Shown piece after piece: positions 1-61,600 of a DNA stretch of 64,000 nucleotides. The stretch comes from Rhizaria sp. SCN 62-66 (taxonomy: Eukaryota): positions 1 through 64,000 of the forward strand of contig MEDY01000212.1 in the NCBI GenBank assembly GCA_001724265.1, given 5' to 3'. The translations under genes and the position numbers were made by a program. Position 1 is the stretch's first letter. Every line of letters begins with the position of its first letter. The notes under the pieces are model-generated. The model was not told the DNA's origin. It saw nothing but the letters and a program-made list of their open reading frames with translations, and ran no database searches.

Positions 1-2
1 TT

Positions 3-3000
3 TTCCACACGTCGTACCCCGCCAAATATACTGTGTCTGCAGTACTTGACGTCACCAACTCATCGCCGTCGCCTATTTCACTGACTCTTCGGCGTATCAT
101 ACTCCAGTCACGTGTGTCAGGATCACAGACAAAGCTTGCCGTGTCGTTTAAAGCTGATTTTGGAGAATGGGACACAAAGGGCTTTAATTTGATGATTGAG
201 GGGCCATTTGATTTCCTTGCAGGAAATGGAAGCGGCAGGTCAATGAATGGAATTGAGTTCACATTTGAGTGTTTTCCTGAGTCGGCGGACTGTGCTTTTT
301 CCACGCAACAGCCCCAGTTTGCGCGTTTCGACTAGTACCGTTTTGAGACGCTTGTGAAAGTGCAGTCTATCGTGTCGGCCTTTAGTAGCGGCGGATCTCC
401 GACTCTAGCTACAGCTCTCATCAACGTGGCCTGCGGTGATGGTCCCGAATGTACGAGCACCGCTGAGCACGAGGTAAACGACTTGCTCCCAGTGCTTCCA
501 CCAGCACTGCCGGTTTCTTTGCCGACTTCAATTGTGGCAGCAAACCCTGTGTCCGCGGAGAACGTGAAGGCATCCAACGCAGTAAACTGGTTTCACTCAA
601 CGTACTCAACCTGCGCCGTGCTGTACGAGCACATTTTTTGTTTCAGCGTGAACGCCAACTCAATATTCCAAGCCAATGGAATGATGGAGTACAACGACGT
701 CCAAGTCCGTGCCACGCGCCCTCTTAACACCATGCTTCCCAGCAAGCTCAAACTCATGGCTACGTCTCCTGACGCAACACTGTTGTTTGTTGGAAATGCA
801 AAGCCGTCGTATGTTTCAAGTAATATTGATATGGTTGAACACACGGACTTGGACATGGGCTCCTTTTACTTAACCTACAACTCTGACTCGGTGTCAGAGT
901 TGTCGGCGCCTGAGTACGTGTACATCACTACTTCGCTTTTCAAGAGCGCAAACCTCGCGTTTATATTCGGGAAGAATCTCGTCCTCCTTGCTGTGCGCCG
1001 CGTTAACGGCGGCAAAGCTTTCCGCACACAGTCTGTCTCCGGACTAGACTCGCTCACAGGCGCGTTTCTCGACGCTTACAGCGCTACTGATATTCTTAAT
1101 CAGGGCCAAGCGACTGTCAATGTGACTACGTCTGATACAGGTAATGTTCTTGCCGGTGTCGCCGATTTCACTGAGTTTAACGAAAAGCAAGTTTTCCCTG
1201 GTGAGCAAGCCGCCATCCTTGTTTTTGCTTTTCGCAGCGGTTACGTACGTCTCTGCACGGGCGCCAGCTCCATCGCTGACGTCATCACAGAGACGGACCC
1301 TCATATGCTGCTGCAGTGCGAAGACGCTGTGTTGGTGTCGCCCAGCTCTGAGATTACCGCCATCACCGCGCTGAGCGGCAACGCTGTGGCGTACGTAGCG
1401 ACGGCCAGTGGTGACTTCTTTATCCTCACGCCCGACGCAGCTGCGCCAGGTCTGATGAATGCCACCAAGTCGCCCATCAACGCCGGCTGTCATGTTCGCT
1501 CTCTTGCTCTACACCCGGCACAGACGCAGCTAACATTTTCCTGTAGTAGCCCGCGTATTGCCTCCATTGCTGTCGACCCCGAGACGGGCGTGCTAAGCGA
1601 GCTCTCATTTACCGGCAGCGCTGACCGTGTGTGGATCGAGTTCCCCTTATGGAATCTTTATTCAATCTCCTACTCGCGCTTTGGCACGCATCTAATGATG
1701 ATTGGCGCAACCGATGACAAAGCAGTCGCGGTGCCGCTCCCTGTCGCGTCTATTGCGACTGTTCTTACCGGTGCGTCTATGCCAGCGGCTGGAGTTAAGG
1801 GATCAGCCTCATTTCAGCTTCAACCGCCGCCCCTCAAGATTTCGAACACTATTCTCGTCGCAATTAAGTTTCCGCAGTCGACAATGTTTAGCAACATGAC
1901 GAAACTGTCTATCGGGGGCTGTACAAAGGTAATGGACGTCTTTGGCAACGTCGTGTACGGGTCAATTCCTCCGGACTGCATCGACCTCAGCCTGCCGCTT
2001 ACTGTAATTGTCACCGACGTCGCGGCGGGCGCTGCAACTATGGCGGAAGAAACCGCTCTGTTCGCGGAGTTTCGTCTCTCGAGCGAGACTACGGGCGTCT
2101 CTGTTTCTCCTGAAATGTGGGAGGTGGCGCCGACGCTGTTCAACTCGCCGCGCATGCCGCCGTGCTCGCCGCGCTCACAGAGTACTCGTTCTGCCTTCGC
2201 TCGTACACAACCACGCTGCCCACGGTGCACCTCAATCTCACCATCGGCCGCGTGGCTGACGGCGACGGCCCCGGCATGGACCCCGACGACCGCCTCGCGC
2301 CGTGTCTCTTTACCGCAGCGCGCTCGCGCCACCTGCGCGGCTTTTTCTTTAGCGCTGGAGTCGCGTTGTCGGCTCCGCTGGTCGTGCGCTGCACCGCCGC
2401 CACCGAGTCCGTGGGCAGCAACAGACACATGATCCGAGCCTTTTTCACAGAGATCGGCGCCAAGTGGGAGTCTGCCGCCTTCGCTGTTGCGCCCACGGTC
2501 ACGGTCGCGCTTCGAGTGGCGCAAGGCTCTTCCGTTCTGATTGATCCGCCGACCTTGCCTGTTGGCGTTAAGTTTATGGTGCAGTCAACGTGGAATGTAG
2601 CGCCAGTTGAGACAATTAGCCTCCGACTTTCTGTTGATGATGGCAACTGCGCGTTTGCAGCCGGAAATACGGTAACAGTGGACCCTTGGGCGTTTCATAA
2701 CAACACTCTGACAGACGACCTTGCAGCTGTCCAATGTTCCTCAACCAGCGCGACTGGCGCTTCGTTTGCAGCGGAGCTGATGGTCTCAAGCCAGACTGCC
2801 GCGTTTGTGGAGATGAACAAAGATGCGCGGCCTGTAATTGGCACGCTCTTTATGCAAGGAAGCTCAGAAGACGAGCCCTTTGTTTTTTCTGCCGACGACA
2901 CCTACGACGTTGCGCTTATCGCGAGTCCAACGCCTGCAGTTGCGGTAAAGGTTGAGCTAACTATGACGCGTAACAACATCCCTCTGCCGCAAATGGCGTG

Positions 3001-6000: not shown

Positions 6001-9000
6001 AATCTCCTCGGTCGATGCGGTCTATCTATGGGTGCGCTGCTGGCAGCACACGGTCAACGGCGCGGGTGTGCCCGTGGAAGGTGCTACGAAGCCATTATTC
6101 AAGTTCGACTACGTCAGCGGCATTGCGTTCCTGCCTACGGCCACGTACGAGCTTGAGGTTGTGTACATCGATTGCGGTGCAATGGTCAAGCTTACTAACG
6201 GGAACGTCATCTATGATGATAATGGCTTTGGGCCGATGGCCTTCCTTGCCCGTGCCACCGCGGTGTGCGAGACTGGCTATGATCTCGTGACAAGCGCAGG
6301 TCAAGTGATCACGTGCGCGACGCTGCCATGCAGCTGGAGCACCACGTGCCAGGCAGCGGGCTGGGGCGAAGCAGCACCGCACTGCGCCATCCACAACTGC
6401 GGCCCGGCGCCCGTGGCGGACAACAAGACAGCGACGGGGCCCGTGTACACGGTCGCCGGCGACAACGGCGCCGCGACGACCTACGGCGCAGTGCTGACAT
6501 ACGGCTGCGCGAACGGCTTTGAGTCAGCGAGCACCACGGCGTCGCTGCGCTGCACGTCCGGGGGCTGGTCGCAGCCCGCTGCGCCTGCCTGCATGGCTGT
6601 GACGTGCCCGGCGCTGACCACGGGCGCCAACACGCTGTAGCCGACGTACAGTGCGACGCCCAACGGCATGCGCCGCTTCGGCTCGACCGCAACCTGGGAG
6701 TGTCTACCGGGACACACGCTGAGCTCTGGCAGTCTCAACGTGACGTGCGGCGCCGACCGCACGTGGAGCGGCGCGCCGCCCGTGTGCCGCACCAACATGT
6801 GCTTGCAAATCTTTCACGACACGTCGACGCAAAAGCCGATCATGTTCTGGTACAAGGACAAAGCGGCGACGGTGGACAAGGTCACCGGGTTCTACTTTGT
6901 TGATACAGTCGCTGAGTACGCTTGTAATGACGGGTACGCGTGGATGGACCCGGACGCATTGCACACGCGTACTTGCGTGGACGACGAAGGCTGGCAGCCG
7001 GTGCTTGCGCCGCGCTGCCTCCCGATGTCGTGCCCGCCGCTTGAGTCGATCTTCTACGGCACGATCAAGCAAGAGCCTGCGGAGCTGGCAAACCTCTACG
7101 GTGTCACCGCAACATACACGTGCGAATACGGCGCAACAGTGACGCCGCAAGGCGGCAGCATCTCGTGCATGGTGAACGGCAGGTGGTCCGGCACTCCGCG
7201 CACGTGTCAGCCAATCCAATGCGCAAACCCTGGCGCGTTCTCGGGCGGCCAAGTGCAGGAAATCGCGACGGGTGTTAATGGTATGTACTCCAACAACTCC
7301 GTCATCGAGTACCGCTGCAACACGGGCTTCAACCTTGTGTACCCGGGCATTGCGCTTGACACCAAGTACTACCTGTCTATCACCACGGGCGCCGGTGTTG
7401 CCATTGAGGTTGGCCGCCGCGAGTGCTCGCCCACCGGCTGGCTGCCCACCCCGCTGCCGCAATGCAAAATCAACGAATGCAGCATGCTGATGAGCACGAT
7501 CAACGTCGAGTCTATTACGTACACTAACGGCAACGCCGCAACAACGCCTTAGTACGGCACTATTGCAACGTACACATGCTCGCCGGGCTACGAAACGCGT
7601 GACATCTACGACGTCGTTGTCCCTAACACGCGTCTCTGCGGCACACGCGACCAGGGCTGGCTGCCACTTGAGCAGCCGCGCTGCGCACCAGTTGACTGTG
7701 GTCTGATTAATCGGACTGAGATCGACAACGCGCTGCCTATTGAATACACGTGGGATGAAGTTGCAATCAAGGGCCCCACGCGCCTCGGCGCCACAGTTGA
7801 CTACACGTGCAAGACTGGCTTTGCGTTCAGCAACGGAAACACTACTTTCACGCGTACTTGTGACGCCACTCGGCACTGGAGCCCCAACGAGCCCACGTGC
7901 AATGACATCAATGAGTGCAACGCCAACGTCTTCGGAGGCAAGTACTTTGTCAACTGCACAAAGCTGCATGGCGCACGCTCGCAGTGCATTAACACGTATG
8001 GCGGCTACATCTGCGTCCCGCTAGTTTGGTGGTGTTACATATGACGCCGTCGAGAACGTCTTGACGCCCAGCAACGCCGCCGGCGGTCAGCGCATCAAGT
8101 TCGCTGTGCGCGCCGGCGCTGGCCTTGTAAGGCCTTACTTTAGCCGTGTTCGCTATCTAAACCCTGACAAAAAACTTTACGATAACCCATCGTGGCTGCT
8201 GTATGAGTGCACTAACGTCGAAGTCAATACAGCAACTGCGTCTGCAAGTGCAGCGGTTGGGTTTGACTACTTTGACGTTTCATGTGAGCTGTCTCCGGGT
8301 CAGGGTGAAGCCCTGTTTGTATCTCTGCAGTATTGCGTTGGCGTTTACGGCAGCAATGTCCCCGACTGCACGCACTGGAACTGGGACTGGCAAGGTACAT
8401 ACAACTCTGTCGACCTGGAGCAAGTGCCGTTTAACGAGCGCTTGCGTGTGACGTACCCAATGCCCATGTTCGTGCCGCGCACACTGCAGGGCGTAACTGC
8501 AAACGGGCTGACGCAGATGACCAACGAATACGTCAGTCAGACCTCGCTCGGTGAGGACGTACTTATGGCGGTCAGCAACTTTTACCTTGAGCGGCCGCAG
8601 CTTATTACAATGCGCTATGGTGAAGCGCTCTCGGCAGACGACTTCCCGTTTATGTGCGATTTCAACCACGCAATGTCGCTAATGTACAGCGGTTATGTGC
8701 TTACGGTTGCGTGTCACACGCAGGACCGTGTAAACCTGATTGATCTCCGCTTCCGTCTTTGCATTGCAGGCCGCTGCGTTATCTCTACAGACCGCTATTC
8801 GTACCCGCAGATCCCCGAGATTACGGCTGTGTACGGCTGCCCGCATGACGACGTGATTAACGGCCGCACAAGCGGCTGCCCTACCGACGGCGGCGACGTG
8901 CGCCTCACGATTATGGGCACAGCCTTTCTCGAGCCATTATCACTCATTATTAGCGGCCATCAGTGTTTGCACATGGAGCGTGCCAACAATACGTTTTTCA

Positions 9001-12000
9001 CGTGCGCGCTGCCGGTCAACACGGGCGAGGCGCTGACCGTGACCGTCAAGGCCGGCTCACAGCGCCTCGAGTCGCGCAGTCGCGTGTCGTACGCAGGCCC
9101 AACAATCACGGGCATTCGTGGCTGCGAAAATGTATCGAATTTGATGATCCGCGAGTGTAACCGCCTGGGCAGCAACAAGATCGAGCTGATTGGACGCAAC
9201 TTTGGTGTCATGGCCTCGACAGTTATGGTTGGTGGGCAGAACTGTCTCAACGTAACGCATGACCCAACGTACCCGCATGAGCGCGTTACGTGCACCACGC
9301 CCCCCGGCTCCGCGAGCGAGCGCACAGTCACGCTAATGCAGCGCTATGGAACGATGTCGCTCGATAACATCCTGCTGTCATACGTGCAGTGTCCGCCCGG
9401 CCAGTATGGCCTTGACATCTTGTGTCTGCCTTGCGAAGCGGGCTACTTTAACGATATGTGGTCGCAAATGACCTGTCGTCAGTGCTCGCCCGGTCTCTAC
9501 TCCAACAGCACCGGCGCTATCAGCTGCACAGTCTGCCCCGCCGGCCAGTACTCCGACCTGGGCGCCCAGTCCTGCGGCGTCTGCGCGCGCGGAAGCTTCT
9601 CCGGTGAGCGCTCCGGTGCCTGCATGCAGTGCCCGCCCGGCACGTTTGCGCGGCTAGAGGGATCTTCCGTCTGCGAGGCGTGCCCACTCGGTGCCGAGAG
9701 CAACGAAGACTACACATTCTGTCGCTGCGCAGTGGGCGCATACATGGACGCTGACGGCACATGCGTCAAGTGCATGCTTGGCGGCGACTGCACTGTTCCC
9801 GGGACGACGATCTACAACATTAAGTCTCTGCCTGGATTTGCGCCCGCAGTAATCCGCTACAAGCGCGACAGCGTTGTGCGCATGCGGTTGTACGTGGCCA
9901 TGCACAGTGCAAACGAGGAGGCGCGCAAAGCGGCGCGTGCCACGGTCACGAAGCTGCTCTACGACGACTCTAACATGCCGCTGGAGCGAATTGTGCTTGT
10001 GGGGCTAAACTTTACCACGGAGGGCGAGCTTAGGGCTGCCAAGCTTGCTGTTGAGCATAGTGCTGGCAGCAGCAGCAGCTCAACTAAAACCGGAAAGCGC
10101 AGTGTTGCCTTTGCTGCCGCTCAAACTGAGGTCTTCCGCCTTACAAACGACACATTAACGCGCGACGATGCGGCTTTAGTTGCCGTGGTTGACGTCGATG
10201 TGTACCCCAGTGTCACCGGTGCTTACTCTCGCAATAACTCTAGTGAGGATCTGTACCTGCGTGCTGTGGAGCAAATCAACCACAACGCCGCCATGTTTCT
10301 GACCCGCAACGGCTTTTCTGCGCTCACTGCTGGCGGTTTTGCGCGTGACACGGAGTTTGAGCGTTTCGCCACGCCGTCGTTTGAGCTGTGCATCAACAAC
10401 GCGTGCCGCGGCAGCGACGTCTGTCTTGAAGGCCACACCGGCAACCTCTGCGCGGTTTGTCTTCCCGGCTACGGCAAGAGCTCAGCGTTTGAGTGTGCGC
10501 GCTGCAACAAGCCCGCGCTGCGCACGTTCATTCTCATTCTTTCCCTCCTTGGCGCAATCGTGATCTGCACCATCCTGGTCTGGAAGCAGATCACCGACGG
10601 CAAGCAGTCGATGAACGAGCTGCCCGCGCCCGCCGTGCCGCTGCTGCTTAAGGTCGCCACGTCCGGTCTGCAAGTAATGTCTATTGCCGCGCGCTATGAC
10701 CTGCAGTGGCCCGGCTTACTCGCTGACGTTTTCAGCACTGCGGACACTGCCGGTGGCGTCGGCACAGCATTCCTGTCTCTTGACTGCTTCCTGGCCGAAA
10801 ACCCCGCGGTGCAGCCGTTCTGGATAACGACAATTAGCATAATGGTGCTGCCACTGGTCGGCGTTCTGCTGCCCGCGATGGTCTTTACGCCGATGTACTA
10901 CGCCGCGCGTCGCCGCTATTGCAGGGAACTGCTCAAGCAGGCCGCTGAGGAGCGCGCGCTGTCGGCTGAGGTTATCGTCGAGCTCAAAGAGAGCGAAAAG
11001 CGCGCCCGCGGTGAGCAGGTGCGCAAGCGCCGCGAAAAGATCGAGCGCGAGAATACGCTCGTGTGGGAGCTCGTAGATGAGGGCCAAGGCCTTGCTGTGG
11101 ACAGCTACAACACATTCGACCCCATCACGGGCAAGACTGCCCTCCGCAGTGTCAACGACAAAGCCGCTGATAGTAGCGCTGCGGATGCCGTCAGCGCTAA
11201 CGGGGCCCCAGCACCGTCAGCCGTGTGGTCGCTGCGCCAGAGCCCCGCGCTCGGCGCCAGTAACTTGCACGCCGACGGCGGCAGCGGCCGCGCTGCTGGC
11301 GCCGGCCGAAAGCGCCGCGTTGCTGTCCGCCAGCGGCCGCGCATCGGGGTCAACTCGGCAGGCGACGTGGCCGAGACGCCACTGCCGCCGCCGGTGCGCC
11401 CGCCAGCGCACTCGCGCCCAGACAGCCACAGTCAGAGTTAGAGTCACTATGACTATAGTGCGACCGACGAAGACCATGACGAAGATGATGAGGAGCTTGG
11501 TGAGTTTGTGGTTGACTATGCACATAACACCGGTGTAGCAAACAACAACAACTACTACAACAACAACAACAGCAGCCCGCTTGTTGCCGCGACGTCACTG
11601 GCCCGTGGTCCCCTTTCTGCCCCCGACTCTAACTCATCCTCCGACCTAGGTGCTGTGCCCATTCTCGGTGACAGCTCTCCAGCGCACAACGTGCAACAAG
11701 CAACGCTGCTTGCTGCCGCCAATGCTCTGCATGCGCGCCACAGCCTCCGTTCCCCCTTTGCGGTTGGCAACGTCTCACCCGCGCTCACGTCTTTGTCCCC
11801 TAGTGCAGCCGCGAATGCCCCTGGCAGCCCCGCGTCCGCCACCGTTGCTTTGTTTGCCCGCAGTCCGCGCCTTGGTGCGCAGACCACTGTATTAGACCCC
11901 GTCGCGAGCCTCGCCGGTCCGCTTTTGCGTGGTCAGTTGCTCTCACAGCTTAAATCGCCCACTCTCGGCGGCAGCAGCCCGCGGTTGCACCCGCATCAGT

Positions 12001-19044: not shown

Positions 19045-20154
19045 ATGTCGCGGCGCACGCGTAACCCAACAGACCTTGCAGCAGTCCAGACAAGTCGTGG
19101 AACAACATCTACTGCTGCCGTTTCTGCTGCCGTTAATGTTTTGAATAAACCGCGTGTAACGTAGTTTAGGCCTCTCTACTTCGCCCTGGTGTCGAACAGG
19201 CACGGCTTGTCTCAGCATTCGCAAAGCTCTCGCGTCGCAGCATCTGACTCGCGTCGTGACTCGTCGAGCCAGATCAACATCAACAATAACAACAACAACA
19301 TCAGTGACAACAGGAACTGTGACCACGACGACAGTGACAGCAGTTACGGCTATTACGACGAAAGCGACAACTATATATATGCCTCGGGGTCTCAAGTCAG
19401 CACTAGCACCAAGCGTTTCAGGACTGCGGGCGCGAGCGCGAGTGCCGGTGCGCGCGCGGGCGCAAGTTATCCTGCTGATCTAAGGCCGATGGCTGATACT
19501 AACAGCGGCAGCAGCAGCAACACCGACACCGACAGTGGCAGCAGCAGTTACAGTGACCCGGATAGCGATGACACGGACGCTGATAGTGGCAGCACAGACA
19601 CCGACACCGAGCGCTCTGAAAGCGACAACGAACGCCCTGGCGGCGCAGCGGTGGCCAGCAAGCATACCCCGTGCAACGCGGCCAATGGGCGCTTCGAGTG
19701 CACGCTTTGCGACCCGAGTGTTTATTTTGCGTGCGAGCAGAACCTGAAGAACCACATAAATGCGCGTCACTTGGATATCAAGCCAATTATTTGCACCTAT
19801 GAGGGCTGTGGCAGGAGCTTCGCTCAGAAAAGTCACCTTACCGTTCACATCCGCACGCACACAGGTGAGAAGCCTTTTTTGTGCTCCTATGAAGGCTGTG
19901 GCAGCAGTTTTAGTCAGAATAGTGACCTTACCGTACACACCCGCACGCACACGGGTGAGAAGCCCTATGTTTGCACATTTGAGGGCTGTGACCGCAGGTT
20001 CACTACTAAGAATCGCCTTAACACTCACCTCCGCACGCACACGGGAGAGAAGCCTTATGTGTGCACCTATGAGGGTTGTGGTCGCAGGTTCACGACGAAA
20101 TATCCTCTTAACATGCACACCCGCACACATACTGGTGAGAGACCCTACGTCTGA
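19045..20154 (+). CDS. C2H2 zinc-finger protein (5 intact fingers before a TGA; N-terminal Ser/Asp-rich region)
   Basis: ATG 19045 ([11 protein letters not shown]) is in frame with ORF 19189 through a TAG at 19162-19164; [10 protein letters not shown]...[10 protein letters not shown] repeats of 90 nt. Confidence 0.8.
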
Positions 20155-44744: not shown

Positions 44745-44778
<34 letters not shown>

Positions 44779-45274: not shown

Positions 45275-47177
45275 ATGTCTCAAGAGTCTGCTCCAGCAGC
45301 AGCAGCAGCAGCAGCAGCTGATTCGAGCGTCCCCAGTCCGTGCAAGCACGACGAAGCTCGGGACGACGCCAACAAGCAGCTGGCCGTGTGCCCCATTCTG
45401 CGCATACCGCGCTTCGACGACTGGCACCTGCACCTGCGCGACGGCGCCGCGCTACCCGAGTACGTCTGGGCGTCTGCGCAGCGGTGCCGGCGAGCGCTGG
45501 TAATGCCAAACCTGGCGCCCCCCGTCACCACCACTGCGGCCGCGCTGGCCTACCGCGCGCGCATCCTCGCCGCGCTCGCCGCCGCCGCCGCGCGCCGCGG
45601 GCTGGCCGCTCCGCCGCCCTTCACGCCGCTGATGACGCTCTACTTGACGGAGGCCACGACGGCGGAGGAGATCGCGCTCGCGGCCCGCTCGGGTGCGGTC
45701 GTGGCCGCGAAGCTCTACCCCGCCGGCGCCACCACCAACGCGGCCCAGGGAGTGCGGGATATAGCCCGGCTGGACCCCGTGCTGCGCGCAATGGCCCGCG
45801 CAGGACTCGTGCTGTGCGTGCACGGTGAAACGACGGACCCGGCCACGGACGTGTTCGATCGGGAGGCGCAGTTCATCGCCACTGTGCTCGTGCCGCTGCT
45901 GGCCCGGCACCCGCGGCTGCACGTGGTCATGGAACACGTGACCTCCGCCGCCGCGGTCGCGCTCGTCGACGCTGACACAGTCCCGGCAAACACGCAGACA
46001 CCAACGCAAACGCATGCAGCGGGCGCTTCAAGTGCCGGCGCAAACGCTGCTTCAAGTTGTTCAAGTGTGCCTATCGCGGGGCGCGTTGCCGCGACGATCA
46101 CCCCGCAACACATGCTGTTCTCGCGCAACGCGCTGTTCCTGGGCGGCAAGCTGCGTCCGCACGCCTACTGCCTACCCGTGTACAAGACGGAGCGCGACCG
46201 CTGGGCGGTGGCGGGCGCGGCCGCGGGTACCGGGGTCAGGCACCCAGAGCGGTTCTTCGCCGGGACCGACTCCGCGCCGCACGCAATAGACGCAAAATGT
46301 AAGAAAAAGCATACGACTAGCAGTTTTAAGTTGTTATATAGTCAATATCCTTGTTATATCCCTCAAAAAAATGGTTTCGCCTATCTTTAACCACCCCTCA
46401 CTTCCCTCACTTGTGCCGCTTGTCTGTCCTCACTCGCGCCCGTAACCAGAGTGCTCCGCCTGCTGCGCGGGCTGCTATACGGCGCCGGATGCCGCCGCGC
46501 TGTACGCGGAGGCCTTTCTGCGCCACGCCGAGGCGCTGCTGCTGGCCGGCGACCTCACCGCGGCAGCCACGGTGACCGTGGGCCGGTTGCGCGCCTTCCT
46601 GGCGCGGGACGGTGCCGCGTTCTACGCCCGTGCTGCCCGCGCGGCCAGAGCGGCCGCGGAGGGGACGGCAACGGAGGGCAACCCTGCTGGCGATGACAAC
46701 CGCTCCAGCAGTGGCAGTGGCAGTGCGGGGGGCGCGGACCCCGCGCTGTTGGCCGCACTCGACTTGCCGCAGCACAGCACCGCGACGGCGACTGAGAACA
46801 ATGACAGCAGAGACAGCAACGACGACAGCAGCGACGGGCTGGTGTTGCTGCACTGCCGCTGCGACTGCTGCTGCTGCGGCAACGGCGGCGGAGGCGGCGG
46901 CGGCGGCCCGCGCGGGTGCCCCGCAGGCGCCCCGGGCTGCTGTCTCACGCGGGCCAACAACGAGCAGGCGCAGGCTCTACAACTGCAACAGCAGCAGCAA
47001 AGTGACTACAACGACGATGCGGCGGCGGTGACAGTGCGGATGGCGGCGGCAATGGCGGTGCGCCTGCGGTGGACACACGCCGCACACGTCACAGAGTGCG
47101 CAGAAGGCAGAAAGGTCTCCGAGTGCACAGAAGTAACTCTCGGGAGCAGCGGCGTTAGCAGCGTTGGTAAGCAGTGA
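45275..47177 (+). CDS. pyrC: Class II (PyrC/URA4-type, stand-alone) dihydroorotase; exons 45275-46298 and 46450-47177 (could extend to TGA 47329-47331 if there is a +1 indel near 47142)
   Basis: DDWHLHLRDG, ALVMPNLAPPVTT, PLMTLYLT, KLYPAGATTN, VHGE, FDRE, MEHVT, ATITPQH, PHAYCLPVYK, FAGTDSAPH, then after the intron CAGCYTAP..LYAEAF..LRAFLARDGAAFY. Confidence 0.95.
46299..46449 (+). other. Intron of dihydroorotase gene (151 nt, phase 1); splicing creates a T|AG codon
   Basis: GTAAGA donor, ACCAG acceptor; a TAA at 46443 in the exon-2 frame constrains the acceptor position. Confidence 0.85.
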
Positions 47178-50266: not shown

Positions 50267-53200
50267 ATGAGCCGCCCCGCGTCCGCGTCGTCCGCTGCGG
50301 CCGACGCCCGCGACCGCGTACGCTCGCTCATGGTCGCCGACGACCTGCCCGCCTACCACCTCTCCATCGCCTCCATCGAGCTGGGACTGGGCGTCTCCGT
50401 CAAGCGCGGTCTCAGCGCCGAGCAGGTCGCCACGAACCGGCTCAAGTACGGCTCCAACCGTCTGCGCGAGCCCAAACAGCTTCACCCGGTGCTCATGTTC
50501 CTCAAGCACATGGTCAACCCGATCACCTTCATCCTCTACTGCGTCTTCATCATCCAGGTACGAGTCCACCAATGTTGTTGCCTATAATATATGTTCATTA
50601 TATTTATATGTATTTTTGCTATCTTACTATATCATCACGCTTTTATTTTAAATAGCCCTCTCTCCTCATGATCTCCCCGCAATATATCCTCTTGTGCTGC
50701 TCCTCACTACCAGGCCGTGTCCAACGAATGGATCGACGCAGGCGTGGTGATGTTCCTCATCGTCGCCAACGCGATCCTGGGCTTTGTCCAGGAGCTTAAG
50801 TCGGTGATGTCGCTCGCGGCGCTGCAGTCGATGTCGTCGCCCGTGGCCACAGTAATGCGCGACGGCGCGTCGATGGCCGTGGACATCAACGACATCGTCG
50901 TCGGCGACGTCGTGCTGCTCAAGCAGGGCGACCAGGTCCCCGCCGACCTCCGCGTCGCGCAGGCGCTCAACCTCGAGGTCGACGAAGCGCTGCTGACGGG
51001 CGAGTCGGTGCCGATCTTCAAGCACACGGACCCACTGCCGCTGCCCAAGCAGGAGCGCGCCGACCTCATCGTCTCGGTCGCGCTCGGCGACCGTAGCAAC
51101 ATGGCCTTCCGGCAGACCACGGTCGTGGCCGGCACGGGTGTGGGCGTCGTCGTCGCGGTCGGCGAGGCCACCAAGGTGGGCCAGCTCTCGGAGCGGCTCC
51201 TCAGCGCGGGCAACCCCAAGACGCCGCTGGAGCGCAAGATGGCCATCTTCATGTACTCGGTCTTCGGCATGGCCATCATCCTCGCCATCATCATCTTCGG
51301 CGTCACCGGCTTCACCTTCGAGCACGACACGATCGTCTACGCCTCGGCCACCGGCATCGCGATCCTGCCCGAAAGTCTCATCGCCGTCGTCACCGTCACG
51401 CTCTCGCTGGCGACGTCGCGCATGGCGGCCCGCAAGGCCATCGTGCGCAAGATGGGCGCCGTCGAGATCCTCGGCAACGTCACCAACATCTGCTCCGACA
51501 AGACCGGCACGCTCACGGAGGGCAAGATGGTCGTCAAGCGCTTCTGGCCCGTCGGCTCCAAGTACATCTACCACGTCACGGGTGGCACCATGGACGCCAC
51601 CGGCGGCTTCGGCCTCGAGCACGACCCCACGGACCCAGACGCGCCGCCCGTCGAGCCGGGCCGCCGCTCCTCGCGCGCCGCCTCCCGGGCCTCGCGCGCG
51701 GGCACACGCGCCTCGCGCGCCGCCTCGGGCACCGGCGCCGCCTCTGTCGGCTCTATTGGTGGGACTGTCTCCGGCCGCCCCAGCACGGCCACGGGCGAGT
51801 CGCGGCGCTTCCGCGCGCCGTCGTACGCGCACACGGTGGCCAAGGTCTCGCAGGGGCTGCCCGAGTCTGACTTCTCGGCGGTGCAGAAGGCGGCCGAGGA
51901 GCTAGCGCTGGTCTGCGCGATGTGCAACAACACGCAGCTGCAGCACGACGAGGAGGAGGACAAGCTCATCGGCACCGGCAACCCCACGGAGCTGGCGCTG
52001 CAGGTGCTCGCGTACAAGCTGCAGAGGTCCCCTTACTACTTCGAGGAGGACGAGGGCTGGCTAAAGTGCGGCCAGTGGGCCTTCGACTCGGGCGTCAAGT
52101 GCATGTCGGTCGGCCTCGTGCGCGACGCCGAGCTCAAGGAGGAGGACGAGGCCTCGGGCCGTGAGGACGGCGACAACTCGCTCGAGTGCAAGGTGCTGCT
52201 CAAGGGCGCGCCCGAGGCCGTGCTGCCCAAGTGCCCAGGCGCCAACGTCGACGAAGTCATGGCCAAGGTCGCTCACCTTGCCGGCCAGGGCTACCGCGTG
52301 CTGGCCTGCGCCGCGCGCGACGACCTCAGGCTGGCCGACCGCGACGGCGCGCGTCTGCATGACATCGACCGGCACCTGGCCGAGTCCAACATGCGCTTCG
52401 TGGGGCTTGTCGTGGTGTACGACCCGCCGCGCGAGGAGTCGTACGTGGCCGTGCGCAAGTGCAAGGAGGCGGGCGTGACGTTCCACATGGTGACGGGCGA
52501 CCACCACGGCACGGCCGAGGCGATCGCGCGCAAGCTGGGCATCCTGGAGGACCACCAGGGCCGCGACCGCGTCACCACGGGGCCAGTGTTCGATGCCATG
52601 ACGGAGGAGATGATCGACCTGATGGAGGAGCTGCCGCTGGTTATCGCACGCTGCTCGCCCGAGAGCAAGGTCAAGATGGTCGAGGCGCTGCACAGGCGCC
52701 GCCGCATCGTGGCCATGACCGGCGACGGCATCAATGACGCGCCCGCGATCAAGATCGCCGACGTGGGCGCTTGCATGGGCATCGCGGGCACGGACGTCAC
52801 CAAGGGCGCCGCCGACATCGTGCTGGCCGACGACAATATCGCGACGCTGGTCAACGCCGTCGAAGAGGGCCGCCACGTCGCCGCCTCGATCCGCAAGTTC
52901 ATCGTGCACCTGCTTACGTCCAACATCGCCGAAGTGATCGTGCTCATGATCGGGCTCGCGCTGCGCGACGACAACAACGAGGTCGTTTTCCCGCTCTCCC
53001 CGCTGCAGATCCTCTGGGTCAACATGTTCACGTCGACACCCCCCGCCATCGGTCTGTCGCTGGACGAGAAGAACCCTGCGCTGATGCAGCAGCCGCCGGA
53101 CCACCGGCCTCTCTTTTCGCTCGAGGTCATGACGGACCAGTTCATCTACGGCATCATTCTCGGCGGCCTCACCTTCGGCGGCTACCTCGTCGTTATCTTC

Positions 53201-53686
53201 GGCTTCGGCGATGGCGAGCTGGGCACCCACTGCAACAAGACCTCCGGCGAGCACACGTGCCACCTGGTGTGGACGGCGCGCACGACGGCCTTCGCGACGC
53301 TCAACACGCTACTGCTCTTCCACGGCTACGTGTGCCGCGATCCGCGGCAGAGCGTGTTCGCGCGCTCCTGGCTCAGCAACAAGGTGCTCCTGTGGTCTCT
53401 CATCGTGGGCTTCGCGCTGCTCATGCCCGTCATCTACATCCCGGGCGTCGCGCGCACGCTCTTCCGCCACGCCTACATCTCCTGGGAGTGGGTCATCGTG
53501 CTCGTCTGCATCGTCCTGCACCTGCTGCTCACCGATCTGTACAAGTTCGTCAAGCGCCAGCTCTACGGCGAGAACCACTGGGAGGCCGACGGCGGCCGCG
53601 CCAGCGCCGGCATCAAGGGCGGCAGCCGCGGCGCGCGCACCGTCATCACCGAGGACGGCGGCCGCATCGAAATGATTCCCGTCTAA
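50267..53686 (+). CDS. ENA: P-type ATPase, ENA-like (type IID Na+/K+ efflux); exons 50267-50557 and 50714-53686; 5' and 3' ends slightly uncertain
   Basis: GLS..RLKYGSNRL, DEALLTGES, IAILPESLIAV, ICSDKTGTLT, GNPTELALQV, KGAPE, DPPR, HMVTGDH, ARCSPESKVKMVEALHRR, MTGDGINDAP, ILWVNMFTSTPPAIGL. Confidence 0.92.
50558..50713 (+). other. Intron of P-type ATPase gene (156 nt, phase 0)
   Basis: GTACGA...TACCAG; joins IIQ|AVSNEW between TM1 and TM2. Confidence 0.9.
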
Positions 53687-55199: not shown

Positions 55200-57446
55200 T
55201 CACTGCATGAGGAAGGCGACGATGCCGGTATCGAAGCCGCAGCCGCCACAGCCGGCCCGCAGCCCCGCCTCGGCCGCCGGGCGCCCCCAGGGGCCCGCAG
55301 CAGAAGGAGCATTGGTACTCGCACCAGCACTAGCATTTGCACTCGAGTAGACTGCGGCCACGGCGGGGGCCTGGGCGAACACAGGGGCCAACGCACAGCA
55401 CCCTTTGTTGCTCTGAGGCAACTGCGACTGCGACTGGGCGTGCGCGTTGTGCGCTGCGTAGACGGCCCCCAGCAGAGCCCGCGTCCGCGCCGCCGCCGCG
55501 GCCACGGCCGGACACGAGCACAGCAGAGCCAACGCAGCGACACCCACCGCACCAGGCCCAGACGCAGACGCAGAGTCTGTCGGCAGCCAGAGGGGCGACT
55601 GGGGGCCGGCCTTGGCGGCGGCCGCGGCGGCTGCGGCGACGGAGACGGCGTCAGGCACCTCCGCGATGTGCGCCCCCGCCTCGCAGCCGCAAGCCATGCT
55701 GCGACTGCCAGCGCTGGCTTCAGCGGTGTTGTTTGCGATGTGAGTATTACTCGCGAGTGCGAGTGCTAGGGAGCAGTGGCAGGAGCAGCAGCCGAGCCAG
55801 AGCAGAGGCACCGCGCCGTCCGAAGTTAGGCCGCCGCCACCCCGTGTCGCGGAAGTTAGGCCGCGCGGTTCGAGCACGCCCGTCGGGCACAGCGGGCACT
55901 GCGACAGCGCGGCGGCCACGGCGGCGGCGGCGGCGGGCGCGGGGCCCGGGGCAGCGCTCTCGGCCACGGACAGCAGCGCAGCGGCGTCAGCAGCAGCCTC
56001 AGCGGCGGCCGCAGCCCCCGCGGCGGCCTCGGCCTCGGCAGCCACCCACCAATCGCAGTCGCTGTCGCCGGTCTGCGCATTGGCGTTCGTGTTAGCTGTG
56101 CCATTGTAGTACGCAGCGGCAGCCTCCTCGTCGAATGCTTGTTGCTGCTGCTGTTGTTGCTGTTGTTGGTTATGCAGCCACTGCTGTTGTTGTTGCCGTT
56201 GCTGGCTCTAATCTTCGTCCCGACATGCCTGGCCGACGCCGCCATACGCGGCAGCAGCACCGCCGCGACTGTACCCGTCGCCGTCGCCGTCGATGGCGGC
56301 CGCGACGGCCGACTGGACCTCAGCCAGTTCCTCGCGGAGGCTCTCAGCCAGCAGCGCGTCCTTCATCGCCAGCATGATGTCCACCATGTCCTCGCTCGTC
56401 AGCACGCTGCCAGTGCTGTCAGGGGCGGCGGCGGCGGCGGCGGCGAGACCTGTGAGGATCAGAGACGAGCCGTCGTCGCACATGCTCCCAGTGTTGTGAC
56501 CAGACTGCGCCTGCGCCTGTGTCTGTCGGTCCGGCGACGCTCGGGCTGAGGCCTGCGCCGAGGCAGTGCGGGAGATGGCGGCGACGGCGTTGCGGCGGTA
56601 CCACTGGAGGAACCACTCCTTGCTGTTGCCGCCGGAGCTGCTGCGCGTCACCGCGGCGTTGTGGCGGCTGCTGTCGTCGTCGTCGCCCATCGCGGGGCTG
56701 CACGTAGTACCGCCGAGGCTGGTGACGGCGGCGGTGGGGACGCGTGACAGCACCGCCGGCAGTCCGAAGCCGGGAAACGACGACGAGGATGAGGACGAGA
56801 GCGACGAGGAGGATGAGGGCGTTGTTGTGATGGGAGACGAGCCAGAGCTGGAGCCGGCGCTGGCACTGGGGCCGAAAATGGAGCCGAAGCTAGCGTTGGT
56901 GCTGGCAATAGCCGCAGCGTTGGAGTTAGCGTTGCTGCCGAAAGGGGTCGAGAAACCTTGCTGTGGAGCTGTACGGGCTGCGTTAGGCGTCATCGGGAAC
57001 GACGCGATAGTAGCAGCAGCGCCGCTGTTGCTGCTGCTTGTGCTGAGGGCGGACTGAATGATGCCATGGAAGGCGGAGGCCATGCTGGCAGCGGCGCGAC
57101 GGGCACTCAAGCGGCCGGCGGGAGCACTGCCACCGCAGCTGCCGGCGTGAACGTCGGCGGTGTTGCCGTTCCCGGTGAGCCCCAGACCAAGGCCGAGCAC
57201 GAGGGCGTTCTCGTTGAAGCAGCTGTCGTCGTCGTCGTCGTCGTCGTTGCCGTCCTGGCCGTCGCCGTTGCTGGCGTTCGAGCCGCACGAGGAGCCGCGG
57301 ATGCGGGTAAGGATCTCGGAGCGGTTTGCGCGTACGAGGTCGGCACAACGCGACATCATGCTCGCCTTAATCGACTCGCGCGTGCTCAAACCACGCGCCT
57401 TGGCCGCCGCGAGAGACGCGCCGGGAGACGGGCGGGGACGGAACAT
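55200..57446 (-). CDS. RPAIN: RPA-interacting protein (RPAIN/RIP)-like, 748 aa, with an in-frame TAG at 56208-56210
   Basis: N-terminal RESIKASMMSRCADLVRANRSEILTRIR, middle EDMVDIMLAMKDALLAE, C-terminal Zn finger CPLC..CSC..H..C..P.F..CGGCGF..IV; ends at TGA. Confidence 0.75.
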
Positions 57447-58638
57447 GAGCTGGCGGAATCGACACCACGAGAATGGGAAATAGATGCGAAAATAATGAGC
57501 CGTACCGCACAACAAATTGTAAACAATAGCAAATAATCACGGAGAATATGGAAATAACATCGAAAGCGCCGTTTACGGTCGGTTATACGTTGTGACAAGT
57601 GCAAACCAGGGTCTCTAAGCCTTATTAAAAGGGCGCCAACTGAACAAACGGAAACAGCAGAATAAGCCGGAATCGACGGTTTTACAAACTCAATGGCATG
57701 AAATCGGTACGAAACGCACATATAAACGCGTATTTGTTGATTTCTAGAAGGTCTTTAAGTTTTAACACGCGAGAAAAGCATATACCCAAGAAACCTGCAG
57801 ACTATCTCGACGCGACAAGATATACACAGGTAAAACCAAGCTCATAACAAATAAAATACTGTGAAAGATTTTCAATAAATATTATTAAGCCCATGGAATT
57901 TTAATATTATTATTATTACTGCTTAGATTAATATATCTAAAAATTGTATCGTTTTTTACCATTATAAATAATTGAAAACTGTTGAAACATATATCAATAA
58001 CATTTTAAATTGTTAGTTTCTTTTGATGCTTCTCTGCCAATGACAGTAAAAAGCTTTTTTTCTTATTGATCTTGGAGCAAACCAAGGTTCTGACTTGCAC
58101 AAAAATGTTAAAAACTGTTAATATCAAACAAAACGTTTTAATGTATTTTAATTCTATTTAAATAAAATTAAACACTATTACAACTTGATAATAAGATAGT
58201 CGTATAATTATAAAATTAAAACAGTATATAATATTATTTAATAATTTATGTTAAATTTCTTAACTGAATATTTGACTCTCACAGTCAAATCAAAGAGTGT
58301 AGCTCTTTAATCAAGAGGTTCGCTTGACGCATGATTAAATATGATGGATAGCAAGGAGCAGTTACCAATGGTCATAATCACAATGATAGATTTGATTGGG
58401 AAATTTTGTATTACAGTGTACGTATATGATAAGTTTGTAACAGGTTAGTTTTTTGATTCTGGGCTCATCACCACAGAAAGACAACATTCGGCAAGTCCGA
58501 AGCAACGCAAATCCGACATTATTAAAATCTCCTAAGACGTTGCCCACGACACATATTTAGCTTCATAAAAACTAAAACTCGAATTTAATTTTAACAAATT
58601 TTGTTCGTATCTCGTATATTTTTATGAGATGACCTTAC

Positions 58639-61600
58639 TCACTCCGCAGTGGTGTAAGAGTACTTGTTATCGCTAGAGGGCTGATTTGCCTAATCGGACT
58701 CAGACTTCTTGTTGGAGTCATCGTCATCATCCTTGGCAGCGGCAGCCTCCTCCTCAGCCTTCTTGGCAGCGGCAGCCTCCTCCTCAGCCTGCTTCGCAGC
58801 AGCAGCCTCCTCCTCAGCCTTCTTGGCAGCGGCAGCCTCCTCCTCAGCCTGCTTCGCAGCAGCAGCCTCCTCCTCAGCCTTCTTGGCGGCAGCGGCAGCA
58901 GCGGCAGCCGGCAGCAGCGGCAGCTTCCTCCTCGGCCTTCTTGGCGGCGGCGGCCTCAGCAGCGGCCTTGGCCTCAGCCTTAGCCTTAGCGGCGGCAGCC
59001 TCCTCCTCAGCCTTGATGCGAGCAGCCTCAGCCTCCGCAGCAGCCTTAGCCTCAGCAGCAGCCTTAGCCTTAGCCTCGGCCTCAGCCTTGGCCTTGGCGG
59101 CGGCAGCCTCCTCCTCAGCAGCGGCCTCGGCAGCCGCCTTGGCCTCGGCCTCGGCCTTGGCCTTGGCGGCCTGCTTGCGCTTCTGGCTGTTGCCGGCCTG
59201 GCCCGCCTCGGGGAACTCGTCCGCGTCCACCTTGACGTTGGCCACTCTCTCGTCAGCGCTAGCGCCAGCAGGAGCCTTGGGGTGGGCGTGAGCGTTAGAG
59301 TGCGCCGCGGGGGCGGCAGCGGCGAGGCCGTGGGCCTGGCGCATGATGCCGGCCCAGCCGCCGGGGGCCGCCGCGGCCTTGGTGGCGGGAACCACAGGCG
59401 CAGCAGCAGCAGCAGCAGCGGCGGCGGCCTTCTTGCCCTTGGGCTGCTGCTGCTGCTGCTGCTTAGGCTCAGCGGCAGAGGCAGCAGCGGCAGCGGGAGC
59501 AGCCGCCTCGGCGGCCGCCTTCTGGTTCTTCTTGTTGTTGCCATGAGTGTTCTCCTTCTTCTCAGTCGTCGTCGTCGTGGCAGCAGCAGAAGCAGCCTTG
59601 GCCTCAGCGGCGGCGGCAGCGGCGGCCTTCTTGTCGGCCGCAGCGGCGGCAGCGGCCTTCTTGTCGGCGTCAGCGGCCTTCTTGTCGGCGTCAGCGGCGG
59701 CGGCCTTGGAGGCCATCTCGTGCTGCCGGCGCTCGCGCTCCTTGTCGGCGGCGGCGGCGCGGTCCGCGGCGGCCTTGTTGGCGGCGGCCTGCGCGTCCGC
59801 GAGCGCCTTCTGCTCCGCGGCCGCGGCCTCGCGCGTGCTCTTGGCGGCGAGCGCCTGCTGGCGCTGCACAGCTGTCGCGGCGAGTCGGCGCACGACGGCC
59901 ACGTCGATGGGGAAGGCCTTGGCGTCGAGGTCGGCCAGCAGCGCCGTGAAGGCCGCGAGCGACAGCGCGTCGGGGTCGCAGCGCCGCAGCACGCGCTCCA
60001 GGTATTGGCCCACCTGCGTGGCCAGCACGTGCAGCTCCTTGGCGTCGGCCGCGGCCTGCTCAGCCATCTGAGTCTCGAGCGCCAGGTGCTGCGACACGAC
60101 CGAGGCCGGCAGTGACAGCGCGCGCGCGCGGGCCTGCTCCTGGCGCGCCTGCAGCGCCGCCGCGCGGCAGCCCGCGACGCGCTCGGCGAGGAACTCGTGC
60201 AGCCGCTGCGCCGACGCCAGGTGCGCGCGCAGGGCCGGGAAGAAGCCCGCGCGCTCGGCGGCGGCGGCGGTGGCGGCCTTGGCGCCCAGCTCCTGCAGGC
60301 GCAGCGCGAGCCGCTGGTAGAGAGCGATCGTGAGCCCGTGGAGCGCGTCGCCGGTCGCCTTGTCGGCGGCCAGCGCGGCGGCCGCGGCCGAGGTGTCGGC
60401 CTGGCGCGCGGAGACGTCGCCGCGCAGCGCCGCGTAGCGCGTGCGCACGGCCTCGGCGCGCGCCGCGGCCTCGCCGAGCTGGGCCTCGGCCGTGGCCAGC
60501 TCGACCTCGGCGCGCTTGAGCTGCGCCTCGAGCAGGCGCTTGCGCTCGCGCGCGTCGTCGCGCTTGGCCGTCAGCTCGGCCACGCGCGCGGCGTGCGGCG
60601 CCAGGTCGCGCTGCTGCAGCGCCTCCAGCTCGGCCGCCTTGGTCGAGGAGCCAGAGGCGAGCGCGGCGGCGCGGTCCAGCTTGGCCTGCGCCTGCGCCAG
60701 CTCGCGGCACACGCCCGTCTCGAGCAGGTGGAACGCCAGCTGCACGTCGTGCTCGTGCTTCGGCCGCTCCTGCAGCGCAGACAGCAGCGGCGCTAGCGCT
60801 GAGCTGGCCCTGGTCAGCGCCGCCGCAGAGGCCTTGTTGGCGTCCTGCAGCACGCGAAGCGGGTCGCTGCCCGCGGTGGCGGTCGCAGCGCCCGCGGGGC
60901 CGGCGCTGGCGGCGATGTTCTGGGAGCCCCAGGGGCCCTGCGGCGCGAGGGGGGCCGCGGCGGCCGCGGCGGCGGCGGACGCGGCGGGCACGGCCTGCTT
61001 GGCGGCGAGCGCGCTGCCCAGCCCGGCGACGTGGACCGACGCCTCGCGCTGCGCGGCGAGCAGCTTGCGCACGAGCGCGGCGTAGCCCGCGGCGGCGGGC
61101 GCGGCGGCCAGCGGCTTGCCCAGCAGCACGAGCTGATCCAGCAGCCACGTCGCCTGCGCCAGCTCGCTGCCGAGCACGTTGGCGATGAGGCGCGCGAGGT
61201 TGGCCTTGGCGGTCAGGACGACGCCTGCGTGGCCGGGTGCGGCGCGCGCGGCGGGGTCAGCGCAGAGGCGGGTGAGGAAGGCCAGCGCGAGGTCGTCGAG
61301 CGCGGGCGACGACGCCAGCGCGGTCGCGATCGGCGTCGGCGCGCCCGCGGCTGCTGCGGCGGCCTGTTGGAGCTTGAGCGTCCACGTGCGGGGCAGTTCC
61401 GGGTCCGCGCGGGGGTCCCAGGCCTTAGCCGCGGCCTCCAGGGAGAAAATGTCGCTGAAGTCGGCGGGCGCGGCCACCGCAGGCAGAACGACAGCAGCAG
61501 CGGGCTTGGGGGCAGCAGCAGCGGCGGGGGCGGGGGCGGCAGCGGGCTTGGCAGCAGCGGGGGCGGCGGGGGTCTCGTCGTCGGGGATGCCGCGGATGCC

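Follow-up and report, generated by a model that had tools for sequence, protein, structure and literature searches.

UAG as a probable glutamate codon, with UAA and UGA as stops, in nuclear DNA of an uncultured microbial eukaryote

Several genes in the 64,000-nt stretch of DNA analysed here (the window) are crossed in frame by TAG, which raises the question of whether UAG is translated in this organism and, if so, as which amino acid. The window is nuclear DNA of an uncultured microbial eukaryote that lives in wastewater reactors and has a GC-rich genome. An earlier interpretation made from the letters alone (the sequence-only reading) had taken TAG as a sense codon at ten triplets and at one codon assembled by splicing. 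All ten triplets are present, and the T and AG of the spliced codon flank a GT..AG intron (Table 1). We found eight robust internal TAGs in five genes, past which both the open frame and the coding score continue; these are 333, 6638, 7550, 11439, 24797, 30797, 56208 and the spliced dihydroorotase codon. The claim that all of them have coding sequence on both sides did not hold for the remaining three. TAG 19162 may lie in a 5′ UTR, because its upstream frame comprises just 109 open codons, holds two further TAGs and has a low coding score, and 22418 and 58690 lie beside terminal stops.

Table 1. Positions of TAG codons, stops, introns and frame breaks in the window
Feature	Position	Strand	Remarks
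In-frame TAG	333..335	+	N-terminal part of giant receptor; 698 open codons after
Frame break	2138..2170	+	Window short by ~55 nt relative to homologue P0253
In-frame TAG	6638..6640	+	Between Cys1 and Cys2 of Sushi unit; passes strict six-frame flank test
In-frame TAG	7550..7552	+	Between Cys1 and Cys2 of later Sushi unit; passes strict six-frame flank test
Deletion junction	8026..8027	+	Window lacks 32 nt present in L001
In-frame TAG	11439..11441	+	Low-complexity linker upstream of the receptor's best-scoring membrane region; 1043 open codons after
TAG	19162..19164	+	Upstream of zinc-finger gene body; left out of count
Decayed C2H2 unit	20152-20241	+	TGA at first Cys, TAA, TAG at Glu of TGEKP linker
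Terminal TAA	21355..21357	-	End of cyclophilin gene
Ala-rich gene, 12.6 kb	22406-35026	-	Carries TAGs 30797 and 24797
TAG	22418..22420	-	3 codons before terminal TAA of 12.6-kb gene; ambiguous, sense or stop
In-frame TAG	24797..24799	-	12.6-kb gene; 796 open codons after, log10 P -13
In-frame TAG	30797..30799	-	1409 open codons before, 2796 after; passes strict six-frame flank test
Split codon T/AG	46298..46451	+	T at 46298, AG at 46450-46451, intron between
Dihydroorotase intron	46299-46449	+	151 nt, GTAAGA..ACCAG
ATPase intron	50558..50713	+	156 nt, GTACGA..ACCAG, 37% GC
Terminal TAA	53684..53686	+	End of P-type (ENA-like) ATPase; Pfam domains; genuine stop
In-frame TAG	56208..56210	-	Gene 55200-57536; 442 open codons before, 335 after
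TAG	58690..58692	-	16 codons before TGA at 3′ end of gene 58639-62086; ambiguous

Across 17,647 coding-frame codons we counted seven TAGs and the one made by splicing, with no TAA and no TGA, the two zeros being partly by construction as the segments were chosen as TAA/TGA-free frames. Off-frame, the same segments contain 145 TAG, 195 TAA and 568 TGA. Since TAG makes up only 16% of these off-frame stop triplets and is the rarest of the three, the probability that all eight interruptions would be TAG is about 4 × 10−7. Each of the seven directly read TAGs is followed by a TAA/TGA-free frame of 163-2796 codons (log10 P from -2.1 to -25, given the local off-frame stop density). TAG 56208 is the weakest of the eight because its log10 P is only -2.1, and for 24797, 30797 and 56208 the support comes from the window sequence itself. 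The names 'INTS6-like' and 'RPAIN-like' earlier given to genes on the minus strand found no backing in Pfam. As a control, the only TAA or TGA lying between coding flanks of the same frame falls inside the AT-rich GT-AG intron of the ATPase gene. Introns are of the GT-AG type and about 150 nt long; the two measured have 37-43% GC, compared with 52-81% around the eight TAG sites. The statement that every interruption is a TAG stands for the eight internal sites and fails in the zinc-finger gene, where one decayed C2H2 unit also contains TGA and TAA. This unit is flanked by intact-looking units in the same frame, and the coding score is negative downstream of it.

The giant receptor carries four of the internal TAGs. 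Pfam Sushi matches this protein in five stretches (E = 5.5 × 10−37), and TAGs 6638 and 7550 do fall between the first two cysteines of Sushi units, as had been noticed from the letters; the units were delimited by eye, and a regular expression recovered only the one with TAG 7550. Another metagenome contig (L001, 8179 nt) matches the window at 100% across TAGs 6638, 7550 and 11439 and forms a single open frame of 2726 codons interrupted only by these three TAGs. A further metagenome contig (L002, 1290 nt) is 100% identical over TAG 6638. At 333, the homologue P0253 has Glu in the TAG column, with 12 identical residues before and nine after it, and is 89% identical over the stretch. The matching contigs of four out of four runs, one of them a polyA RNA library, read GAG at this site; T was found there in none of the four, and TAG 333 is without support outside the window. 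Comparison with other contigs left three receptor TAGs unchanged and returned GAG for the fourth.

Two changes of frame in the receptor, near 2140 and 8026, had been taken for introns; they are deletions in this assembly. At 2138..2170 the identity to P0253 falls from 89% to 61%, and at 8026 the frame is continuous once the 32 nt of L001 are restored; in run X4 one contig carries 30 additional letters at this junction. The window assembly is evidently not error-free, since it contains at least two such frame-breaking deletions. Of the 818 differences that separate the window from variant contigs in the receptor, 40 were listed: 24 synonymous, 15 non-synonymous and one TAG/GAG. The synonymous share (24/39) exceeds an expectation of 30% (P = 4 × 10−5), and downstream of three TAGs six of nine listed differences are synonymous. 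Differences are mostly synonymous before and after the TAGs, and the reading frame is under selection. These data show that TAG interrupts functional, selected reading frames.

In the dihydroorotase gene, canonical splicing yields K-TAG-C. Seven in-frame GT/GC-AG pairs were examined, and only the intron at 46299-46449 keeps the spacing seen in homologues. The TAG column is Glu in all 118 informative homologues among the 120 listed, the other two being the ORF of the window itself and a relative at 59%, both of which read into an intron at this point. The E. coli dihydroorotase chains likewise have Glu here. The T at 46298 is implied by a database protein (P0007, four contigs), and in the 59% relative the same intron splits a codon that begins with G, as judged from its read-through translation. 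The conserved C-terminal exon is retained 3′ of the TAG, and this essential enzyme needs its TAG to be decoded.

TAA and TGA behave differently. The P-type ATPase has its C-terminus, at a TAA, where its relatives P0134-P0137 have theirs, and the cyclophilin matches Pfam Pro_isomerase to profile position 158 of 159, with its TAA stop eight residues later. To judge from these two endings, TAA is a true stop. Over the 13 genes grouped from 16 ORF ends, eight end with TGA and five with TAA.

That TAG is translated and TAA and TGA are not, as the sequence-only reading held, is borne out by the eight internal TAGs set against no TAA or TGA, by the synonymous excess and by dihydroorotase. Taken together, UAG inside genes is probably decoded as glutamate in this organism, with UAA and UGA terminating translation. 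The amino acid is assigned because the two informative sites, dihydroorotase and 333, independently have Glu or GAG in relatives; its identity is read from these two sites, the other six TAGs being at unconserved positions. By analogy with other UAG reassignments, the decoder would be a tRNA-Glu that has acquired the anticodon CUA, which differs by one base from that of the GAG reader, acting alongside an eRF1 that recognises UAG poorly; GAG-to-TAG changes would then now be silent. ARAGORN detected no tRNA gene in the 64,000-nt window, and no eRF1 gene was recognised by Pfam searches among the window genes. TAG occurs about once in 2,200 codons, and presumed Glu codons comprise seven TAG, 565 GAG and 116 GAA. 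That TAG accounts for only about 1% of them, that 333 corresponds to GAG in P0253 and that TAG lies just upstream of two terminal stops suggests a young reassignment.

The sequence-only reading had left the amino acid unnamed; the evidence is for Glu, and not for Gln or Leu as in the examples it cited. Codes in which UAG stands for Gln or for Leu were rejected on this ground, both informative sites being Glu and neither Gln nor Leu. A code with both UAA and UAG as Glu, of the peritrich or Blastocrithidia type, was discarded as the codons counted include no in-frame TAA and TAA ends the ATPase and cyclophilin genes. The use of all three stops as sense codons was also dismissed, in-frame TGA or TAA outside introns occurring only in the decayed zinc-finger unit.

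Four other explanations have to be weighed against the reading of UAG as glutamate. One is that UAG is ambiguous, being Glu inside genes and a stop near mRNA 3′ ends, as in Condylostoma, the karyorelicts and, for UAA, Blastocrithidia. It draws on TAGs 22418 and 58690, which precede the final stop by three and 16 codons in two of 13 genes, where 0.09 would be expected of an ordinary rare sense codon (P = 0.004). Two of the 13 gene ends are ambiguous, and the claim that genes never convincingly end at TAG is not established. The same pattern would arise, however, if both were leftovers of earlier TAG stops that translation now passes on its way to the next one, and gene 58639-62086 meets its TAG only once the frame has slipped within a 30-nt repeat near 58900. 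We consider this ambiguity unlikely. It is still less likely that UAG is sense for an amino acid other than Glu, be it Gln, Leu, Ser, Tyr, Lys or Trp, or for a near-cognate mixture, with the Glu matches as tolerated substitutions. The UAG-only codes in the accessible literature do use Leu, Gln or Ser, and only two sites inform the identity. Against this, the dihydroorotase column is invariant among the informative listed homologues, the 21 residues flanking 333 are identical in P0253, the alternates at both sites are of the GAG type, one base from TAG, and the split codon of the 59% relative begins with G.

The organism might also use the standard code, and the TAGs might mark pseudogenes or null alleles hit by nonsense mutations, or be errors of assembly or sequencing. 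The frame-breaking deletions at about 2140 and 8026, the slip in the repeat near 58900, the GAG found at 333 in four runs and the clearly decayed zinc-finger unit would all fit such a view. It does not account for the exclusive occurrence of TAG at the eight interruptions or for the recurrence of three TAGs in further assemblies without the deletion at 8026, nor for the synonymous excess that extends downstream of the TAGs, the conserved dihydroorotase exon after the TAG and the spread over five different genes. We regard this explanation as very improbable. We hold it to be just as improbable that the code is otherwise standard and that a few UAGs are edited in the RNA or passed by site-specific programmed readthrough. 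The rarity of TAG would be in line with it, but no sequence context is shared after the eight TAGs (the next bases are T, C, T, A, C, G, A and T), and no common readthrough motif was found there. TAGs in the cores of Sushi domains and at an invariant enzyme residue would moreover demand efficient decoding. Known A-to-I editing would yield Trp and not Glu, which counts against editing.

With UAG as glutamate, the window might come from a previously unsampled eukaryotic lineage with a young UAG-to-Glu code and UAA and UGA as stops, maybe at an early or ambiguous stage. Signs of such a stage would be the TAG share of about 1% of Glu codons, new TAGs arising from GAG between close homologues and TAG at some gene ends, where termination may persist. 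If true, a code of this kind would be a new entry among natural codes, with a code table of its own, and would offer a natural setting in which to test codon reassignment by way of an ambiguous intermediate. If it is recent, the organism and the close relatives bearing homologues in the same reactors could show the capture of a stop codon. There is also a practical side. Calling genes by the standard code splits them in public protein sets: P0129 (three contigs) stops exactly at TAG 7550, and the dihydroorotase protein P0007 runs into the intron. Metagenome pipelines will therefore mis-annotate this organism.

Changes of the nuclear code are rare, and those that give UAG and UAA different meanings are rarer still. 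Such a split is described as particularly interesting in the available text of PMC11687900, as the termination machinery must separate two very similar codons. In the accessible parts of PMC5304391 and PMC11687900, UAG-only codes that keep UAA as a stop are given as Leu for the rhizarian exLh and three TARA phyllopharyngean ciliates, as Gln for Iotanema spirale, Hartmannula sinica, Trochilia petrani and Protocruzia tuzeti, and as Ser for Scotinosphaera. Like these, the present code appears to have UAG as sense within genes, TAA and TGA outside coding frames and at gene ends, and different meanings for UAG and UAA. Unlike them, it has Glu by both informative sites; its genome is GC-rich and non-ciliate in style with TAG at ~1% of Glu codons, and TAG still stands beside two terminal stops.

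UAG as Glu is known from codes of another kind. According to the text available in PMC11687900 and PMC12153298, peritrich ciliates read both UAA and UAG as Glu, Blastocrithidia nonstop has UAR as Glu and UGA as Trp, with UAA also serving as stop, and the oligohymenophorean ciliate of PMC10553269 has UAA as Lys and UAG as Glu. The likeness lies in UAG as Glu, presumably through a tRNA-Glu with changed anticodon. In all three UAA is reassigned, whereas here TAA is a working stop and TGA is likewise never in frame over the codons counted. Full-text searches of the accessible literature returned no UAG-to-Glu code in which UAA is kept as a stop. Context-dependent stop/sense codes are reported, in the portions available, for Condylostoma, the karyorelicts and Plagiopyla (PMC11687900, PMC4967479). 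The TAGs near two gene ends make a comparable dual use of one codon conceivable here, but in those organisms all three stops are sense codons, and in the present genome this would concern TAG alone.

The GC content of the window lies between 55 and 75%. A codon-usage scan trained on the window's own domain-bearing open reading frames (ORFs) delineated 14 genes on both strands, with AT-rich spacers between them (see table). The labels 'INTS6-like' and 'RPAIN-like', given to two minus-strand genes in the sequence-only reading, found no support, and Pfam was empty for the Ala-rich 12.6-kb gene (22406-35026, minus strand) and six other ORFs. ARAGORN detected no tRNA genes in the window, and there were no Rfam matches at the gathering threshold. 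Two stretches of 1.5-1.9 kb (48200-50100 and 53700-55200) are devoid of coding signal in every frame and likewise lack Rfam and tRNA matches. Metagenomes from bioreactors and wastewater, generated in several studies, contain the sequence of the window.

Annotated genes, domains and introns of the window
Feature	Position	Strand	Evidence or description
Giant receptor	1-14573	+	Pfam: Sushi (E 5.5e-37, 5 stretches), TIG, ephrin-receptor-like repeats
C2H2 zinc-finger array	19792-20453	+	Pfam; 90-nt period
Third intron	starts 43869		GAG/GTACGC at its start
Type II dihydroorotase		+	PDB matches, E down to 7e-68
Dihydroorotase intron	46299-46449	+	GT..ACCAG, AT-rich, well defined
ENA-like P-type ATPase	50267-53686	+	Pfam
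ATPase intron	50558-50713	+	GT..ACCAG, AT-rich, well defined
Cyclophilin			Pfam; ends at TAA
Rrp15			Pfam match in window

All ten TAG triplets that had been proposed to be read as sense were found at their positions (333, 6638, 7550, 11439 and 19162 on the plus strand; 22418, 24797, 30797, 56208 and 58690 on the minus strand), and the T and AG of an eleventh, spliced one (46298/46450) flank the dihydroorotase intron. Sorted by coding signal and an open frame on either side, eight of them are robust: 333, 6638, 7550 and 11439 in the receptor, 30797 and 24797 in the 12.6-kb gene, 56208 (gene 55200-57536, minus strand) and the spliced dihydroorotase TAG. The proposed coding sequence on both sides was not borne out for 19162, 22418 and 58690; TAG 19162, as well as TAG 18539, may lie in a 5′ UTR. 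Past the seven directly read TAGs the frame continues without TAA or TGA for 163-2796 further codons. Given an off-frame TAA/TGA density of 1.4-4.5% per codon in those stretches, log10 P ranges from -2.1 (TAG 56208, the weakest of the robust sites) to -25. The 17,647 coding-frame codons include seven TAG, plus the one split by the intron, and neither TAA nor TGA; these two zeros arise partly by construction, as the segments were chosen as TAA/TGA-free frames, and it is frame length that carries weight. Off-frame, the same segments hold 145 TAG, 195 TAA and 568 TGA. Since TAG is the rarest off-frame stop triplet, the probability that all eight interruptions are TAG is about 4e-7.

A stricter test, in which one frame had to score best of six on both flanks, yielded TAGs 6638, 7550 and 30797 together with a single TAA and a single TGA; the latter two belong to the ATPase intron, the length of which is divisible by three. 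The GC content at the eight TAG sites is 52-81%, as in coding sequence, compared with 37% in this GT-AG intron. This serves as a control: TAA and TGA interruptions accompany an AT-rich GT-AG intron, whereas TAG interruptions sit in GC-rich coding sequence. As had been noticed before, both Sushi TAGs are located between Cys1 and Cys2, each in a four-Cys unit that is complete in other respects; these units were read by eye, and a regular expression caught only the second of the two. No common downstream context was found after the TAGs.

A metagenome scan led to two contigs of other assemblies, L001 (8179 nt) and L002 (1290 nt, the same sequence as window 5909-7198). L001 corresponds to window 5692-13838 with 100% identity save for 32 extra bases (L001 2336-2367) between 8026 and 8027 and, with these bases included, is a single 2726-codon open frame broken only by TAGs 6638, 7550 and 11439. 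These three TAGs have thus been assembled independently, and the frame switch near 8030 reflects a deletion in the window and not an intron. A contig of sequencing run X4 carries 30 extra letters at the same junction. The sequence is also backed by two database ORFs identical to the window: P0129 (three contigs) terminates at TAG 7550, and P0007 (four contigs) continues across the dihydroorotase intron and has the T of 46298. TAGs 24797, 30797 and 56208 are attested in the window assembly alone, and at site 333 every covering contig, whether from the three DNA runs or from the polyA RNA run, has G and hence GAG.

The frame is also broken at about 2138-2170 in the receptor, where approximately 55 nt are missing relative to the receptor homologue P0253 (26 residues versus about 8). 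Identity to P0253 is 89% before this break and 61% after it, so that the window may join two diverged copies there. A motif of the type K-K-A-E-E-E-A-A-A-A is encoded by a 30-nt tandem repeat (7.6 copies) at 58732-58957. Within this repeat, gene 58874-62086 slips from its main frame and goes on in another one to 58639; the slip is probably another assembly indel.

When the window was compared with variant contigs, 40 of 818 differences were listed, all of them within the receptor: synonymous changes at third positions account for 24 and replacements for 15, and the last one is TAG/GAG. The synonymous excess (P 4e-5 against a 30% synonymous expectation) is also seen past the TAGs, where six of nine differences downstream of three TAGs are synonymous. 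The receptor frame is therefore under purifying selection there, which argues against a pseudogene. TAG is tolerated within functional genes, and selection acts through it. In the polyA RNA run X14, contigs without differences from the window cover the receptor and gene 15809-18733 in part; DNA carry-over is possible for these contigs, and the listed pieces cover no TAG of the window's own sequence. A search of sequencing runs listed no RNA run matching window 5500-9500. We consider it very probable that TAG is a sense codon.

The final stops of 13 genes, into which we grouped 16 ORF ends, are eight TGA and five TAA. The TAA of the ATPase coincides exactly with the ends of its four closest relatives and that of cyclophilin follows eight residues past the domain end, which confirms that TAA is kept as a stop. 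TAG 43878 was ruled out as a gene end, being located just inside an intron that begins GAG/GTACGC. TAG 22418 precedes the final stop of the 12.6-kb gene by three codons, and TAG 58690, reached after the frame slip in the 30-nt repeat, lies 16 codons before the final stop of the gene ending near 58640. Two TAGs so close to a final stop compare with 0.09 expected from eight TAG per 17,647 codons (P 0.004); each is a former stop, with translation now running on to the next one, or else a stop in current use. The statement that no gene ends at TAG is not established, as a TAG stands just before two of the 13 final stops.

The amino acid at site 333 can be read from P0253 (2052 aa), the sole match to the first 712 residues of the receptor in a search of 1.84 billion representative proteins, with 89% identity over window residues 1-719. 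P0253 has Glu opposite TAG 333, with 12 identical residues before and nine after it. The contigs with GAG at 333 were assigned to the P0253 homologue because their 730 C>G exchange matches its Thr-to-Ser change. This P0253-like sequence occurs together with the window sequence in runs X1, X2, X4 and X14 (polyA RNA), X4 showing both receptor versions at 730-809, and could represent a paralogous gene, a second haplotype or a sister strain. For the Sushi region, a search among shorter proteins gave four matches, namely the window's own ORF and three animal Sushi proteins, and no close relatives.

Exon 1 of the dihydroorotase gene ends in DSAPH, four residues and K, and exon 2 opens with C-S-A-C-C-A-G-C-Y. 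Full enumeration gave seven GT/GC..AG pairs near the junction that keep exon 2 in frame. GTAAGA(46299)..ACCAG(46449) is the one pair that retains the two conserved flanks as well as the homologues' spacing, and its product reads K-TAG-C. Of 8000 homologues scored, the best 120 were listed, and in 118 of these Glu directly follows the K or R of the motif. The two exceptions, the window's own ORF and the metagenomic relative P0008 (59% identical), were both gene-called into an intron exactly there. P0008 reads on as K-G-T-D, which, as we infer, fits an exon whose last base is G, with GT after it; the split codon would then start with G where the window has T. In PDB alignments, the Glu opening the E. 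coli motif E-S-S-C-G-C-A-G-C falls at the TAG position. P0008 (3931-nt contig) has an apparent intron that agrees with that of the window gene in codon and phase and may stem from an organism related to that of the window. The C-terminal dihydroorotase exon (46452-47174) keeps the conserved motifs and contains long inserts of low complexity, with runs of Gly, Cys and Gln. A GTAAGC stands ahead of the TGA that closes its frame and may mark a further intron.

TAG 20227 was considered as a third Glu site. It stands at the Glu of TGEKP in zinc-finger unit 20152-20241 (30 codons), which is in frame with intact units on either side; the site was not counted because this unit also contains a TAA and, in place of its first Cys, a TGA. 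The claim that every interruption is a TAG is accordingly valid for the robust sites and fails in this unit. The coding score is negative from here onward and a later unit has no second Cys; the array looks like one recently truncated by a premature TGA, with a decaying tail after it.

Wherever homology is informative, that is at two sites, TAG takes the place of Glu or its codon GAG by sequence comparison. For the code as a whole, TAG probably means Glu, with TAA and TGA as stops. TAG is rare (seven versus 565 GAG and 116 GAA), both inferable alternates are of the GAG type and TAGs occur at gene ends, which suggests a recent change. By analogy with other lineages and from general background, a tRNA-Glu with anticodon CUA, one base away from the GAG reader, would decode UAG, and an eRF1 with weakened UAG recognition would be expected.

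In a FastTree phylogeny of 44 rows chosen by us from 120 listed, the ATPase groups with four database proteins (P0134-P0137; 53-61% identity) with full local support, and this group of five stands apart from kinetoplastids, Andalucia, fungi and plants. An ESM Atlas search with the ATPase returned a mixture of fungal and bacterial clusters and gave no placement. The contigs carrying the four relatives reach up to 318 kb, and these proteins are the best leads to kin of the window organism.

No UAG-to-Glu code with UAA as a stop was found in full-text literature searches, although supplementary code tables could hold cases. According to the text of PMC11687900 and PMC5304391, UAG alone is reassigned and UAA retained in the rhizarian exLh and three TARA phyllopharyngean ciliates (Leu), in Iotanema, Hartmannula, Trochilia and Protocruzia (Gln) and in Scotinosphaera (Ser). 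UAG is described as Glu only in company with a reassigned UAA: in peritrichs and, with UAA as Lys, in one oligohymenophorean ciliate (PMC11687900), and in Blastocrithidia (PMC12153298). As far as these texts go, the window would resemble exLh, the TARA ciliates, Iotanema, Hartmannula, Trochilia, Protocruzia and Scotinosphaera in retaining UAA but differ in the amino acid, Glu instead of Leu, Gln or Ser, whereas it would share UAG as Glu with the peritrichs, the oligohymenophorean ciliate and Blastocrithidia and differ from them in leaving UAA unreassigned.
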